In this document: positions 20,558 to 33,075 of the stretch, piece by piece | Numbering within the stretch: the stretch's first letter is position 1 | Layout of the letters: every line of letters begins with the position of its first letter | Assembly (NCBI GenBank): GCA_963669315.1 | Contig: OY770021.1 | Location: 3,277,467-3,317,466 of the forward strand | Length of the DNA: 40,000 nucleotides | From: Paracoccaceae bacterium | Lineage (GTDB): Bacteria; Pseudomonadota; Alphaproteobacteria; Rhodobacterales; Rhodobacteraceae | Direction of reading: 5' to 3' | The notes under the pieces: generated by a model | Told to the model about the DNA's origin: nothing | Seen by the model: only the letters and a program-made list of their open reading frames with translations | The model's database searches: none | Program-made: the position numbers and the translations under genes

Positions 20558-23263
20558 TTATGCGTCTCCACGCCTCAGGCGCACGGTCAGCCGGAAAAAA
20601 CTCTTTCCGGCCGGCGTGAACTCAACCGACAGATCGCCACCCATATTCTGCATGATCGCTCTGCTGATCGGCAGGCCAAGTCCCGTGCCTTGAGCAATGG
20701 TCGAGCGATCGCCGCGCGCAAATTTCTCGAAAATCACGGCGGCTTCCTCTCGGCTGACGCCGCCGCCATTGTCGATAACGTCGATCTCGAAGTTGCGGCG
20801 CCGGGTGCGCGCCTCGATGCGGATTTCCGGGCTTGCGCTGCTGTTGTACTTGACCGCGTTGGTCAACAAGTTGATCAGCACTTGGCGGATCCGGTCTGAG
20901 TTCGCACGCACCTGCGCATCCTCAGCGGCGTATTCAACGGTCGCTTTGACGTTATGCTCGTCGAACAGCGGCGCCATGCTCGCCATCACGGCCTCAATCT
21001 CGGCTTTGGGGTCCAGCGGCTCCGTCGGTACGGTCGTAGTGCCGGATTCAAGCCTGCTGAGGTCCAGAAGTTCATCCAGCAGACGGGTCAGCCGCAGGCT
21101 TTCCGAGTGGATGATCGCGATGAACTGCTTGGCTTCCTCCGTGGTCGGCTCATCCTCGTTCAGCAAAATCTCAGAGAAGGACCGGACGGAGGTCATCGGC
21201 GTTCTGAGTTCGTGGCTGATCTGGCTGAGGAACGCATCCTTCTGCGCGTCCAGCGCGCGCAGACGGTCATTCGCCACGCGCAGTTGCTGTAATGTTTGCT
21301 CAAGCTCGGCGGACTTTTCCGAAAGTTGGCGCGAGGTTTCGATCAGGCGCTGCGTCTCATCGGCGATATCGATCAGCTCGGTCAGGCTGATGTCTTCGGC
21401 GCCGACCACCCGGCCGACCATCGCGTGTGCCGAAGCCGCGCCGACGGAACCGGCCAGTTCTCGCTCGAGCCGAGAAATGAAAGCGTCCGTCGGCTTTGGC
21501 ATTCCGCCTTTCTGACCCTGTTCCCGCGCGATTTCGGCGAACAGACGCCGGGCCGCCGCGCCGCCAAGGATGCGCTGCGCGAGCGCAAAAAGGTCTTCGG
21601 TGGCCGCCGAGCGCTGAATGTAGTGATGGCTGTCGCCAGTGGCGGAGTGGAACACGTCAACGAACAGGGCGGCCTGAAGTCTTTCCAGCGTGTTTTGCGA
21701 GGTGAACAGGGATACGACGAAGAACAGCAGCGTGTTGAGCCCGATGCTCCAAACCAGCGAGTAGACCAGCGGATCGGCGCCCTCGACGCCCAGCAACGCT
21801 TGCGGGCGCAATATTTCGATTCCGAAGGGACCGTTTTGCAGAACCGACACTGACATCAGAAAGGCGCCCTCGAAGCTGGGCAGCGCCAGAGTGTAGACCC
21901 ACAGTGCGAATCCGGCCACCAGCCCGGCGAGAGCGCCCGCTTTCGTCGCGCCGCGCCAGAACAGGCCGAGGATCAGGCTGGGCAGAACCTGAGCGCTACC
22001 GGCGAAGGCGATCAGGCCGATGGAGGCAAGGGCGTTCGTGCCGCCGGTCAGTTCGAAATAGACGTAGCCGAAGAACATGATCAGCAGGATCGCGAGGCGG
22101 CGGGACATCAACAGAAGCCCGCGCAGATCGCCCTTCGGTTCCGTTCCCTTAGGGTAGAGGATCAGCGCCAGCGGCATAATGATGTGGTTTGAAACCATGG
22201 TGGAGATCGCAATCGCCGCCACGATCACCATCGAGGTCGCTGAGGAAAATCCGCCGATGAAGGCCAGCATCGCCAGGTCGCCGCGGCCCTCCTGCAAGGG
22301 GAGCGTCAGGACGAACATGTCCGGGTTCGAGCCCTCTGGCGACTGGTTCAGGCCCGTGATCGCGATCGGCAGCACGAACAATGTCATTAGGAACAGGTAA
22401 AGCGGAAACATCCACGAGGCGGTCGAGAGGTGTTTCTCGTCTACATTCTCGACCACCGTGACCTGAAACTGGCGGGGCAAGCAGATGATGGCTGAAGCCG
22501 ACAGGAACAATAGCGCCGTCCAACGCGGGTCGAATACCTGCGCGGCCTCGATCATACGGGGCGGCATTCGCTCGAACACGTCGCCGAAACCGGAACCGAT
22601 GCTGAAGGTCACGAAGATGCCGACAGCCAACAGGGCGCCCAACTTGACCAAAGCCTCGAACGCGATCGCCGCCACGACGCCGTGATGGCGTTCATTCGCA
22701 TCCAGATTGCGGGTGCCGAACAGGATAGTGAAAACGGCAAGCCCGCAGGCGGCGAGGAAAGCCGTCTCGCTTTGCGATACGGCGCCGGTCAGCGCCTGAA
22801 AGCTGAGCGCGATCGACTGAAGCTGAAGCGAGATATAGGGCGTGGTGCCCATCACCGCGATCAACGTCACGATCACCGCAAGCGAGGCGCTTTTGCCGTA
22901 GCGGGATGAGATCAGGTCCGCGATCGACGTGATGCGCTGGGCGCGTCCGATCCGCAGCAATTTGCGCAGCAGCCACCACCAGCCGACGAAGACGAGGGTC
23001 GGCCCCAGATATATCGTCATGAAATCGAGCCCACTTCGGGCCGCCAGGCCGACCGAGCCGTAAAACGTCCATGACGTGCAGTAGATCGAGATCGACAGAG
23101 TGTAGACGAGGGGCGAGCGCAGCCAGCCGACTTTGCCTTCAGTCGCGCGCTTGTCTCCCAGCCACGCGACTCCGAACAGCAGCGCTACATAGGCCAGACA
23201 GACAAGGACGAGGACATTCGCGCTGAGCATTCCGTTCGCCGCTCTAGTCGCCAGTTTGTTCAT
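20558..23263 (-). CDS. Sensor histidine kinase fused to an N-terminal sodium:solute-symporter (SSF) domain (CbrA/CrbS-like architecture, no receiver domain)
   Basis: About 500 aa of SSF-type polytopic membrane domain come first. These are followed by a linker, the H-box SHELRTPMTSV, N-box LINLLTNAVKY, G1 DNGGGV and G2 GTGLGLPISR. The alternative ATG at 23230 (MLSANVLVLV...) avoids overlap with the upstream small ORF. Confidence 0.9.
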   Translation of the reverse strand: MNKLATRAANGMLSANVLVLVCLAYVALLFGVAWLGDKRATEGKVGWLRSPLVYTLSISIYCTSWTFYGSVGLAARSGLDFMTIYLGPTLVFVGWWWLLRKLLRIGRAQRITSIADLISSRYGKSASLAVIVTLIAVMGTTPYISLQLQSIALSFQALTGAVSQSETAFLAACGLAVFTILFGTRNLDANERHHGVVAAIAFEALVKLGALLAVGIFVTFSIGSGFGDVFERMPPRMIEAAQVFDPRWTALLFLSASAIICLPRQFQVTVVENVDEKHLSTASWMFPLYLFLMTLFVLPIAITGLNQSPEGSNPDMFVLTLPLQEGRGDLAMLAFIGGFSSATSMVIVAAIAISTMVSNHIIMPLALILYPKGTEPKGDLRGLLLMSRRLAILLIMFFGYVYFELTGGTNALASIGLIAFAGSAQVLPSLILGLFWRGATKAGALAGLVAGFALWVYTLALPSFEGAFLMSVSVLQNGPFGIEILRPQALLGVEGADPLVYSLVWSIGLNTLLFFVVSLFTSQNTLERLQAALFVDVFHSATGDSHHYIQRSAATEDLFALAQRILGGAAARRLFAEIAREQGQKGGMPKPTDAFISRLERELAGSVGAASAHAMVGRVVGAEDISLTELIDIADETQRLIETSRQLSEKSAELEQTLQQLRVANDRLRALDAQKDAFLSQISHELRTPMTSVRSFSEILLNEDEPTTEEAKQFIAIIHSESLRLTRLLDELLDLSRLESGTTTVPTEPLDPKAEIEAVMASMAPLFDEHNVKATVEYAAEDAQVRANSDRIRQVLINLLTNAVKYNSSASPEIRIEARTRRRNFEIDVIDNGGGVSREEAAVIFEKFARGDRSTIAQGTGLGLPISRAIMQNMGGDLSVEFTPAGKSFFRLTVRLRRGDA

Positions 23264-30930: not shown

Positions 30931-33075
30931 ATGTTTGAGGACTGGAGCCTCAGGCGGCGTGTCTTTCTGTTCTTCGCGTTGATCGCTTGCGGCGCTGCAA
31001 TCGCCATCGGCGCTGGCATGTGGTTCGCAGCGGCGCGGATTGGAGAGGGCGCCGGCCCCCCGCTGGTGCTTTTTGGCGGCGGGGCGGGTTTCGCAATCGT
31101 GCTGCTGACCATGTGGGTCTGGAGGATGTTCGACGAAAACGTCGCGATCCCGATTCAGGCCCTTGGCAGGCAGTTGGAGACTCAGGCCCACTCTGTCGCG
31201 GACGCGGACAAGCTGGTAACAAGGCGCGCGAAATATTTGGGACCGCTCGCCGGCGGCGCGGAAGATATCGCGAACGCTCTGTCCCGCGCCAGAGAAGAGG
31301 TGGAGGATGAGGTCGAGCGCGCGGTCGCCGAGGCGGATCGCAAGAAGGCGCAGCTTGAGGCGGTGTTGCGGGATCTTAAAAGCGGCATCCTGATCTGCAC
31401 GCTGGATCATCGCATCCTTCTCTACAATCTGGAGGCCCTTAAGCTGCTGCATGTGTCGGGCGAGTTGGGGCTGGGCCGCAGATTCACATCGCTCGTTACG
31501 GAACAGCCGATGCTTCACGCTCTCGAACGGCTGATGAACAGGTTCAAAACCCGCCGATATAAGACCCACCGCGATGGCTTGGGCGTGGGTGTCGTGTGCG
31601 CTACGCGGGATGACGGTCGGACGCTGCAGGGAAGGGTCAGCTTGGTGCTGGACGCCGCCGAAACCGCGGTTGAAGGCTATGTCGTGACTCTCGACGATGT
31701 CACGAAAACCATTGCGGCGCATACGGCGCGCGACCATCTATTGTCAGATGCACTGGATGGCGTGAGGCGACCTGTCGCCAATTTGCGCGCGTCGGTCGAG
31801 ATGATGGCGCAACTCACAGCGGATGATGGCGATGCGCGAGAGATGTTCGAGAAAGTTCTGGCGGACGAGTCCTTAACTTTGTCGAGGCGGATTGAGGCGT
31901 TGGCCGCGCGTCAAAGAGAATTGCGCGTCGGTGGTTTTCCGATGGAGGATGCGTACTCCTCAACGCTGTTCACCTGCGTGCAAGAGCGGCTGCGCGACGA
32001 TGCCGCCGTTAAGCTCGAGCCAGAGGGGCCGCCATGTTGGGTGCATTGCGAAAGCCTGACGGTGGTGGAGCTGCTGGCTGGCGCGGCGGCGCTGGTCGCT
32101 TCCTTGGCGGAGGAAACGGATGGCGCGGCCCCCTGGCTGAGTATGAGAGCCGGCGCCACCGATGCGCGCGTCTATTTCGATCTGCTTTGGTCCGGACAGC
32201 CTTTGCCGATGTCGCGGATCGAAAACTGGCTGGATGAGCCTTTGGCCGACAGCCTCGGCGGCCTGACCGCGAGGGATGTGCTGGCCCGGCACCGCACAGA
32301 GTTCTGGTCGGATCATGAACAGGATGGCCGTGCGCGGCTGCGTCTACCGTTGTCGCTGGCGGTCGAGGATCATGAGGGCGCCCCGGCCATGCCTCTGCCG
32401 GCGCGGCCCGAGTTCTATGACTTCGATCTTCTGGGGGCGGAGACTCCCTCAGATCTGGCTGACACGCCTCTAAAAGAGCTGACATTCGTAGTTTTCGACA
32501 CCGAGACCACCGGGCTCGACCCGTCAGGCGGTGATGAAATCGTGCAGATCGCCGGGCTTCGGGCGGTCAATGGGCGGATCATGCGTGGCGAGGTGTTTGA
32601 CGAGCTGGTCAATCCCGGCCGACGCATTCCCGCTGCATCGACTCGGGTGCATCGCATCACCGATCAGATGGTCGCCAAGGAGGATCGGATAGAGCAGGTC
32701 CTGCCTCGTTTTCACAACTACGCCGCGGATTCAGTGCTGATCGCGCACAATGCGGCATTCGACATGAAGTTCTTGCGTCTGAAAGAGTCGCGTTGCGGAC
32801 TGCGCTTCGAAAACCCGGTGCTCGATACCGTTCTTCTGTCCGCGTTTCTGTTCGATCAGATAGGCGAACATACGCTGGATGCTTTGGCCGAACGATTCGG
32901 AATTCGCATCCCCGAAGACGAGAGGCACACGGCGCTGGGCGACTCTCTGGCGACCGGGCAGGCGTTTTTGCATATGCTGGATCCGCTGACGGCGCGGGGA
33001 ATTGAAACGCTGGGTCAGGCGCAGGACGCGTCCGCCAAAATGTCGGCGATCCGGCGGCGTCAGGCGCAGTATTAG
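30931..33075 (+). CDS. Membrane-anchored sensor (2 TM, PAS-like, degenerate histidine-kinase-like core) fused to a DnaQ/epsilon-type DEDDh 3'-5' exonuclease
   Basis: It has two N-terminal TM helices and a PAS-like segment ([22 protein letters not shown]...). A DHp-like helix [22 protein letters not shown] has Asp where the H-box His is expected. The following region, about 130 aa long, has no N or G boxes. The exonuclease motifs are [25 protein letters not shown] and [12 protein letters not shown]. Confidence 0.85.

Follow-up and report, generated by a model that had tools for sequence, protein, structure and literature searches.

How a sensor histidine kinase might govern the uptake of short-chain carboxylates when no response regulator with a DNA-binding output is encoded beside it is the question raised by a gene cluster of a Paracoccaceae bacterium (assembly GCA_963669315.1, contig OY770021.1). 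The cluster occupies positions 20558-33075 of a stretch of 40,000 nucleotides that was analysed as a whole and is called the window here, all coordinates being those of the window. Genes were called from a listing of open reading frames (ORFs), codon-position GC, and Pfam and NCBIfam scans. By these scans all nine genes that an earlier note on this DNA had grouped together are present with the domains that it gave them, although the note had overlooked a gene for a peptide of 82 residues, termed S82 below. The parts belong to known families, and the pair formed by a DUF294 nucleotidyltransferase and an exonuclease is already known from the acetate regulon, where its function is unexplained. 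What appears to be undescribed is the direct wiring of an SLC5/STAC kinase, through a receiver, to an exonuclease fused to a pseudo-kinase. It is proposed here, tentatively and at somewhat less than an even chance, that two conserved modules form one circuit for monocarboxylate uptake (of the acetate, pyruvate, propionate or lactate class). In this circuit a non-transcriptional two-component branch, with docking of the DivL-DivK kind, seems to gate a nucleotide add/remove pair, while a parallel ScfR-receiver-kinase operon seems to supply transcriptional control.

A pseudo-kinase fused to an exonuclease

The proposal turns on the following two genes at the downstream end of the cluster.

30551-30928, plus strand: REC2, a stand-alone receiver of 125 residues (Pfam Response_reg, 99.6 bits), ending 2 nucleotides before the exonuclease gene
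30931-33075, plus strand: a protein of 714 residues with a transmembrane (TM) hairpin, a long helix, a PAS domain, a dimerisation and histidine-phosphotransfer (DHp) hairpin that lacks the histidine, a degenerate catalytic and ATP-binding (CA) domain and a DEDDh 3'-5' exonuclease domain (Pfam PAS_9 and RNase_T)

The RNase_T match of the 714-residue protein scores 116 bits, and the DEDDh residues D523, E525, D611, H666 and D671 (Exo I, Exo II and Exo III, the last with the H-x4-D spacing) are invariant in an alignment of 16 sequences. By sequence the exonuclease domain is nearest to PolC (2p1j, E=2e-29) and to DnaQ proofreading domains. An AlphaFold model (mean predicted local distance difference test score, pLDDT, 72) places the PAS domain, behind the TM hairpin and long helix, at residues 152-256, the DHp hairpin at 258-328, a CA-like alpha/beta domain at 339-476 and, after a linker that is flexible in the model, the exonuclease at 518-713. 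Foldseek matches the N-terminal part of this model to WalK, VicK, ThkA, HK853 and the pseudo-kinase DivL (4q20), and the C-terminal part to the PolC exonuclease. When the protein is aligned with the window's own kinase by hhalign, the phospho-His, the N-box Asn and the G1 Asp are all found to be replaced, and in 16 homologs the phospho-His column holds D, E or S. By visual comparison the DHp specificity residues of the pseudo-kinase are unlike those of the kinase, a difference that carries no information here. The label of pseudo-kinase-exonuclease that the protein had been given is accurate as judged from the model, in that a DHp and CA fold is predicted from which all three of these residues are missing. 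Full-length homologs, of about 700-720 residues, number in the hundreds.

Related loci were obtained by a scan of one genome per species, which gave 577 relatives. The best 80 of the 577 were kept with 10-kb flanks (L001-L080) and annotated by matching to the window proteins; they span alpha-, beta- and gammaproteobacteria, Nitrospirota and Magnetococcales. Four further loci were compared, namely a near relative, L081, with proteins 76-85% identical to those of the window, and the contexts of three kinase homologs, L083-L085, from Rhodobacteraceae NNCM2, Thermohalobaculum and Rhodobium gokarnense. The nearest named relatives are Limibaculum, Paralimibaculum, Oceanicella and Thermohalobaculum.

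If the DHp hairpin is kept as a surface for the receiver, its conservation might follow that of the receiver gene. The comparison used a MAFFT alignment of 83 exonuclease proteins with column analysis, extraction of the DHp motif by regular expression being unreliable, and set loci with an adjacent receiver (n=61) against loci without one (n=18). In the DHp, identity to the consensus is 0.57 with and 0.40 without an adjacent receiver in helix alpha-1, and 0.38 against 0.28 in helix alpha-2. The corresponding values are 0.48 and 0.49 for the PAS domain, 0.45 and 0.42 for the CA-like domain and 0.69 and 0.65 for the exonuclease domain. Additionally, 11 of the loci without a receiver, belonging to several lineages, show loss or truncation of the helix bearing the motif RRPxANLRAxxE in the alignment. 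The DHp is thus degenerate where the receiver is not adjacent and conserved where it is, which fits a DHp surface kept for the receiver.

Conservation of the gene set

In 61 of the 79 loci in which this could be assessed, the gene next upstream of the exonuclease gene encodes a receiver alone, and its stop codon often overlaps the exonuclease start. DUF294 lies near the exonuclease gene in 58 of the 80 loci, the symporter large subunit (SSS) is found in 40 and its small subunit, DUF4212, in 34, and an orthologous SLC5/STAC kinase (680-820 bits) is adjacent to the exonuclease gene in 32. The exonuclease gene is usually accompanied by either this kinase with S82 or a DUF4212/SSS operon, the latter often together with an acetyl-CoA synthetase gene. 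The link to two-component parts on which the earlier note had remarked is supported: the genes for kinase, stand-alone receiver and pseudo-kinase-exonuclease form a tight group, in which the stop codon of one gene often overlaps the start codon of the next. That the genes should be co-conserved had been set beforehand as a refutation test, and the core does recur in the 80 loci, with synteny in L081 identical to that of the window, S82 included. Because of this identical synteny and of the recurrence across several phyla, the grouping is, as a matter of comparative sequence analysis, far beyond chance.

Three layouts recur. In Rhodobacterales the order is DUF4212-SSS-DUF294 (the form with a cyclic-nucleotide-binding, cNMP, domain)-U168-REC-exonuclease, U168 being a small membrane protein described below; in Rhodospirillales and gammaproteobacteria it is REC-exonuclease-S82-kinase, with a short, CBS-only DUF294 nearby; and in Betaproteobacteria it is S82-kinase-REC-exonuclease-DUF294-DUF4212-SSS. 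An adjacent kinase and U168 are almost mutually exclusive (kinase only in 21 loci, U168 only in 17, both in 1), the long cNMP-containing DUF294 accompanying U168 and the short CBS-only form accompanying the kinase. Both the kinase and U168 lie nearby in the window and in L081, an unusual combination. An acetyl-CoA synthetase gene (acs) lies upstream of DUF4212 in 15 loci and an adenylate kinase gene in 12; the order in Limibaculum, for example, is acs-DUF4212-SSS-DUF294-U168 homolog-REC-exonuclease. A link of the pair to acs, which the earlier note had stated for other proteobacteria, is also present in Rhodobacterales loci.

In L058, a Hyphomicrobiaceae metagenome-assembled genome (MAG), a gene at 4775-6922 on the plus strand encodes a 715-residue fusion of RNase_T, two CBS domains, DUF294 and DUF294_C, and adjoins a gene for a full-length pseudo-kinase-exonuclease. 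A gammaproteobacterial MAG (L008) carries two tandem pairs of DUF294 and pseudo-kinase-exonuclease genes within 12 kb (1-3463 and 8371-12115), neither exonuclease copy having an adjacent receiver gene.

Two receivers and two modules

The upstream part of the cluster is a minus-strand operon that contains the second receiver.

23992-25395, minus strand: ScfR/RamB-family regulator with an XRE helix-turn-helix (HTH) and a ScfRs C-terminal domain, first gene of the operon
23489-23872, minus strand: REC1, a stand-alone receiver of 127 residues (Pfam Response_reg, 103.6 bits)
23244-23492, minus strand: S82, a peptide of 82 residues forming a two-TM hairpin, between REC1 and the kinase and absent from the earlier gene list
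20558-23230, minus strand: SLC5(SSF)-STAC-HisKA-HATPase sensor histidine kinase, non-hybrid, 890 residues from ATG 23230 (longest ORF to 23263)

REC1 and REC2 had been described as paralogous receivers without output. Both do consist of a receiver domain alone, are 41% identical and retain the acidic pair, the phospho-Asp, the Ser and the Lys; however, they belong to different subfamilies with different conserved partners, the REC1 subtype being confined to ScfR-REC-S82-kinase operons and the exonuclease-adjacent receivers being of the REC2 type. Since the two subfamilies have distinct partners, the window is read as a juxtaposition of two modules, a sensor/transcription module beside an effector module, with a common divergent control region.

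Besides REC1 and REC2 there is no further receiver domain in the whole 40-kb window, so the earlier statement that no DNA-binding response regulator is encoded here holds, although ScfR is itself a DNA-binding regulator. Across the 80 loci a C-terminal extension is found on 9 of 74 receiver ORFs, mostly far from the module, and a REC+GerE regulator in a single locus (L080). The idea of post-transcriptional control consequently survives in part: response regulators with DNA-binding output are nearly absent, but ScfR provides an ordinary transcriptional route, and the circuit is for this reason not purely post-transcriptional.

The sensor and transcription module

The start of the kinase is probably at 23230, as corrected from its relatives. 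Its HisKA and HATPase_c domains score 69.5 and 86 bits in Pfam, while the SSF match is borderline (22.2 bits against a cutoff of 22.8). The H-box, SHELRTP, is canonical, the N, G1 and G2 boxes are intact, and the chain ends after HATPase_c with no C-terminal receiver. Residues 4-605 align to the CbrA SLC5-STAC structure 10ED from Pseudomonas putida (E=1e-74, 255 bits). These canonical boxes and the match to CbrA over the first 605 residues identify the kinase as a non-hybrid member of the SLC5/STAC 'transceptors', the family that includes CbrA, CrbS/MxtR and RpuS. Its orthologs are 62-66% identical across alpha- and gammaproteobacteria, which is unusually conserved. The SLC5 domain of the kinase was also considered as a recent duplicate of the neighbouring SSS transporter and this was rejected, the relationship between the two being too distant.

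The S82 ORF overlaps the REC1 stop codon by 4 nucleotides and ends about 13 nucleotides before the likely kinase start at 23230. Its homologs terminate at the kinase start in about 29 of the 32 kinase-bearing loci, and it is called as a gene in L081 and in L083-L085. No sequence similarity was detected between S82 and DUF4212, nor between S82 and any chain in the PDB, CbrX included; by position and topology S82 may be a CbrX-like small membrane partner of the sensor.

The regulator at the head of the operon matches HTH_3 (47.8 bits) and ScfRs (96 bits) in Pfam, and misses the RamB equivalog of NCBIfam (192 bits against a 700-bit cutoff). The gene order ScfR-REC1-S82-kinase is kept in L081 and in L083-L085. 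In L083, L084 and L085 the operon (ScfR, REC1, small peptide and SLC5/STAC kinase) lies at 7930-12673, 7327-12676 and 7823-12688, respectively, divergent from a HAAT-type ABC transporter (Peripla_BP_6, two BPD_transp_2 and two ABC_tran) and with no exonuclease nearby. This conservation of a joint operon in other alphaproteobacteria suggests that ScfR and the stand-alone receiver work together. No conserved operon combining an ScfR gene with those of a receiver, of a small peptide and of an SLC5/STAC kinase was found in the literature searched.

The effector module and its control region

The plus-strand genes upstream of REC2 and the region that separates them from the ScfR operon are as follows.

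25396-25865, no strand: putative divergent control region, with an AT-rich block at about 25440-25560 and then a leader of about 300 nucleotides
25866-26129, plus strand: DUF4212/TIGR03647 symporter small subunit (Pfam 112.7 bits; TIGR03647 109.7 bits against a 26-bit cutoff)
26144-27919, plus strand: VC_2705-family sodium:solute symporter large subunit, 591 residues (TIGR03648 832 bits against a 321-bit cutoff; Pfam SSF)
28074-29912, plus strand: nucleotidyltransferase with cNMP, two CBS, DUF294 and DUF294_C domains (Pfam), 612 residues (longest ORF from 27963)
30025-30531, plus strand: U168, a conserved two-TM membrane protein of 168 residues with no family match

All four Pfam models of the nucleotidyltransferase (cNMP-binding, the CBS pair, DUF294 and DUF294_C) score above cutoff, and its gene probably starts at 28074. 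The residues G383-S384, D395-x-D397 and D475, the third carboxylate, are invariant across 20 DUF294 homologs, and because of this conserved GS...DxD signature with its third carboxylate the enzyme is probably active. Searched by sequence against solved structures, the protein gave matches for the CBS and cNMP domains and none for the catalytic unit. In a structure model (pLDDT 78) the nearest solved folds of the catalytic unit are predicted to be the AMPylation domain of DrrA (TMt 0.64) and both domains of GlnE, in agreement with the classification of DUF294_C with the C-terminal domains of GlnD and GlnE (PMC3710099). This likeness opens a reading in terms of protein modification that was absent from the options of the earlier note.

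U168 has no match in Pfam, NCBIfam or PADLOC, and its homologs occupy the same position in 28 of the 80 loci. For the window PADLOC gave nothing beyond generic domain matches, and an anti-phage system is thus not supported.

The cluster had been said to hold DUF4212 and an ActP-like symporter. The pair is present, its genes 15 nucleotides apart, but the TIGR03647 and TIGR03648 matches assign it to the two-subunit VC_2705 family rather than to ActP proper; the large subunit falls short of the ActP models (TIGR02711, 138.8 against 1099 bits; PRK09395, 175.6 against 750 bits), and its partner is DUF4212, not YjcH/DUF485 as for ActP. By curated models the pairs Sama_1522/1523 and Psest_0346/0347 belong to the same family as the window pair, and symporters of this family elsewhere take D,L-lactate and D-alanine. 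For the window, acs in relatives and the presence of ScfR suggest, by analogy, acetate, propionate or pyruvate as the substrate. Price et al. have shown that DUF4212 is a required small subunit of the symporter and that a neighbouring COG2905 gene is cofit with the transporter, and speculated that the latter is needed for symporter expression.

The AT-rich block at 25440-25560 contains TTGACA- and TTGCAA-like repeats and is strongly conserved with L081, and the DUF4212 start is probably 25866 or 25854, as judged from L081 and the ribosome-binding site (RBS). A hairpin at 25807-25833 and a GGCG...CGCC stem around the RBS, just before ATG 25866, are present in the leader of both loci. In other lineages an orphan riboswitch candidate, the 'TIGR03647 motif', lies directly upstream of DUF4212 genes and consists of a conserved CUUU between two hairpins, of which P2 encloses the RBS (Stav et al. 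2019, PMC6429828); no CUUU was seen in the leader here. A promoter and terminator scan gave a signal no better than that of shuffled sequences. An upstream ORF behind a conserved GGGAGGA was rejected, as the peptide that it would encode in the window is not conserved in L081.

Comparison with known systems

Among the closest known counterparts is the CrbS/CrbR system of Pseudomonas and Vibrio, in which an SLC5/STAC sensor likewise controls short-chain carboxylate use (PMC5715377, PMC9927547) and whose target operon likewise contains a cNMP-CBS-DUF294 gene and an RNase_T exonuclease gene, tied to acs/actP (bioRxiv 10.64898/2026.09.07.749794). In Pseudomonas this pair (PP_0354/PP_0353, PA3233/PA3232, Pflu5625) is among the genes most dependent on MxtR/ErdR, which corresponds to CrbS/R; ErdR binds the PP_0354 promoter, making the operon a direct ErdR target. 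Deletions of the pair impair growth on pyruvate and propionate but not on acetate, the mechanism is stated to be unknown, and authors studying Pseudomonas have proposed protein modification. The pair has been a strongly regulated, unexplained member of the acetate regulon since 2017, and the earlier statement that it is met repeatedly near acs/actP, with no mechanism assigned, holds for Pseudomonas (PMC9927547, PMC9765439, bioRxiv 10.64898/2026.09.07.749794). However, CrbS is a hybrid kinase acting through a LuxR-type (REC+GerE) regulator that transcribes the pair, whereas the window kinase is non-hybrid and has no such regulator; the transporter of the CrbS/R system is YjcH/ActP instead of DUF4212/VC_2705; and the window exonuclease carries a TM-PAS-pseudo-kinase portion and has its own receiver, whereas published descriptions of PP_0353 mention an RNase_T domain only. 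Because the window exonuclease has pseudo-kinase domains of its own and a stand-alone receiver, control would be exerted at the level of the protein.

The CbrX-CbrA pair of P. putida (10ED) shares with the window a homologous SLC5 and STAC portion and a small two-helix peptide encoded immediately upstream of the kinase. Translation of CbrX, a hairpin peptide, is coupled to that of CbrA, and the peptide is packed onto the SLC5 domain of CbrA (PMC13022988). CbrA differs from the window kinase in signalling to the sigma-54 activator CbrB and in binding histidine. In Caulobacter, DivL also combines a histidine-kinase fold that lacks the histidine with a stand-alone receiver, DivK, as its partner, and it is by analogy with this pair, together with the conserved DHp surface that tracks the receiver gene, that docking may be envisaged in the exonuclease family. 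DivL, however, acts on the kinase CckA and has a Tyr at the His position, whereas the window pseudo-kinase family has D, E or S there, has lost the ATP-binding boxes and has a fused exonuclease as its output.

GlnE, GlnD and DrrA have in common with DUF294 and DUF294_C a Pol-beta nucleotidyltransferase core and a helical C-terminal domain, which is the closest solved fold. There is no match at the level of sequence, the N-terminal sensors of the window enzyme (cNMP and CBS) are different, and its partner is a DEDDh exonuclease where the GlnE/GlnD class has an HD or a second nucleotidyltransferase domain. RamB and PrpR, acyl-CoA-responsive members of the ScfR family, share the XRE HTH and ScfRs C-terminal domain with the window regulator. 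In the literature searched, no description was found of a pseudo-kinase-exonuclease, or of one linked with a receiver and with an SLC5/STAC kinase.

A proposed circuit and its rivals

In the circuit proposed here the kinase would detect substrate or flux via its SLC5 domain and phosphorylate the stand-alone receivers. Phosphorylated REC2 would bind the pseudo-kinase at its His-less DHp hairpin, in the way that phosphorylated DivK docks on DivL, and this docking would switch the fused exonuclease on or off. The exonuclease and the DUF294 nucleotidyltransferase would form an add/remove (or tail-and-trim) pair working on a common substrate and controlling the symporter and acs, with the nucleotidyltransferase reading cyclic-nucleotide and adenylate status through its own domains. 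The preferred substrate would be an RNA 3' end, that of an RNA through which the expression of the symporter/acs operon is set. ScfR, possibly with REC1, would add a layer of transcriptional control that responds to acyl-CoA and acts at the divergent promoter common to both modules. Domain content, the state of the catalytic residues, synteny, the L058 fusion and the two classes of receiver are shown by the analysis, whereas we infer the phosphotransfer, the docking, the direction of regulation and the substrate. The earlier suggestion that the receivers gate the nucleotidyltransferase is not supported: no link between them was found, and the DUF294 enzyme has its own cNMP/CBS sensor domains.

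The DEDDh enzymes known to us all have nucleic acids or oligonucleotides as their substrates. This speaks for an RNA 3' end or a nucleotide signal here, and RNA is ranked first, narrowly. A number of observations nevertheless weigh against the circuit as drawn. Roughly one locus in four has no adjacent receiver, most Rhodobacterales loci have no adjacent kinase, and the comparison of DHp degeneration ignores phylogeny. The exonuclease domain most resembles the DNA proofreading exonucleases PolC and DnaQ by sequence, not RNases, and the modelled likeness of DUF294 to protein AMPylases argues against an RNA substrate. The deletion phenotypes in Pseudomonas are mild. Finally, there was no relevant Rfam match in the window or in 7 related loci at gathering thresholds, or in the leader at E<=10, it being unconfirmed whether Rfam holds the TIGR03647 motif.

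The same wiring could serve a different chemistry. The pair might be a writer and eraser of protein nucleotidylylation, DUF294 AMPylating or UMPylating a protein (for example the symporter, Acs, a receiver or the sensor) and the DEDDh domain hydrolysing the protein-O-P-nucleoside diester to release 5'-NMP, which we consider rather unlikely. The transferase fold and the membrane anchoring of the exonuclease, encoded beside membrane proteins, favour it: DrrA and both GlnE domains are the top solved neighbours, DUF294_C is grouped with the GlnD/GlnE C-terminal domains, and the Pseudomonas authors arrived at a similar proposal. GlnD and GlnE join opposing activities in one chain, which the exonuclease-nucleotidyltransferase fusion of L058 parallels, and a phosphodiesterase that releases 5'-NMP can de-adenylylate Tyr-AMP, as snake-venom phosphodiesterase does on glutamine synthetase. 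Yet we know of no DEDDh enzyme whose substrate is a nucleotidylylated protein, this analysis identified no candidate target in which a modifiable residue is conserved, and the likeness of fold may reflect only which members of the family have been solved. Alternatively, DUF294 might make a nucleotide signal, either a linear dinucleotide or oligonucleotide or a metabolite carrying a nucleotide. The exonuclease would degrade this signal, as oligoribonuclease does pGpG, and the two-component branch would set its lifetime. Such a signal was among the options of the earlier note, DEDDh enzymes include the dinucleotide-degrading Orn, the nucleotidyltransferase has an intact active site under cNMP/CBS control, and the two enzymes are closely co-conserved and in one case fused. 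The loci show no evident receptor for a signal of this kind, however, the GlnE/DrrA-like fold is without a known messenger synthase, and the exonuclease is nearest to PolC/DnaQ and not to Orn; this alternative is accordingly thought improbable, and the lowest of those weighed here.

Scarcely more probable is an ordinary reading in which kinase, REC1 and ScfR merely regulate transcription of the adjacent uptake operon, REC2 and the pseudo-kinase act as a phosphate sink or a phosphatase tuning the pathway, and the activities of the exonuclease and DUF294 are incidental or of a housekeeping kind. Single-domain receivers are often phosphate sinks, ScfR belongs to a bona fide family of HTH regulators, the divergent promoter region contains the conserved AT-rich block, and in L083-L085 the ScfR-REC1-S82-kinase operon is conserved beside a HAAT-type ABC system without the exonuclease. 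On the other hand, many loci have REC-exonuclease-S82-kinase, with DUF294, and neither ScfR nor any other DNA-binding regulator; the catalytic residues of exonuclease and nucleotidyltransferase are invariant; the HisKA phosphatase motif (H-E/D-x-x-T/N) is not retained in the pseudo-kinase; and the L058 fusion together with the fitness and regulon data tie the enzymes to carboxylate use.

The circuit of two modules may also be stated more broadly, as a widespread two-component pathway with a non-transcriptional output, in which a nuclease would be controlled through a pseudo-kinase acting as a 'receiver-reader'. With a phosphorylated stand-alone receiver docked on the His-less DHp, the fused DEDDh exonuclease would be switched, and together with a metabolite-sensing DUF294 enzyme it would run a regulated nucleotidyl add/remove cycle, on RNA or protein, to control carboxylate uptake. 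This generalisation is more doubtful than the circuit for the window itself and is judged rather unlikely. Outputs of two-component systems are overwhelmingly DNA-binding proteins or second-messenger enzymes, and we are aware of no published pathway with an exonuclease, read through a pseudo-kinase, at its end; literature searches likewise found none. If true, the broad reading would account as well for the orphan operons of DUF294 and exonuclease genes in the acetate regulon of Pseudomonas and Vibrio. The comparative picture gives the DUF294/exonuclease pair named partners (a receiver, a pseudo-kinase DHp, small membrane proteins and a symporter operon) and joins three loose ends: the cofitness of DUF4212/SSS and COG2905, the occurrence of CbrX-like peptides with SLC5/STAC sensors and, perhaps, the RNA candidate upstream of DUF4212. 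Uptake of short-chain carboxylates matters in marine carbon cycling, host-microbe interactions and acetate-based bioprocesses.

Flanking genes

The flanks are unrelated to the cluster, with folate/para-aminobenzoate (pABA), LuxR/LuxI and TRAP genes and a protein of 1315 residues upstream, and genes of Tad-like type with an integrase on the downstream side. The interval 868-5437 encodes an amidase and a TRAP (DctPQM) transporter, on the strand opposite to a pair consisting of a LuxR-type autoinducer-binding regulator and a LuxI-type autoinducer synthase (5944-7548, plus strand). At 8354-15957 (plus strand) a copper/heavy-metal P-type ATPase (YHS and HMBD) and a TauE-like exporter precede a pABA/folate run made up of a chorismate-binding PabB-like protein, a glutamine amidotransferase, a class IV aminotransferase, folP, folB and folK. 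The 1315-residue protein (16477-20424, minus strand) belongs to no Pfam family and has weak matches to ZorA, which is MotA/ExbB/TolQ-like (NCBIfam E=0.006, PADLOC E=3e-4); downstream of its gene, 15977-16450 encodes a protein of 157 residues without a family match. The interval 33002-37316 (plus strand) has TadG- and TadE-like genes and, after them, a gene for a phage-type integrase (36438-37316). L081 likewise carries an integrase and Tad-like genes downstream of its exonuclease gene, and this stretch may be the edge of a mobile region.

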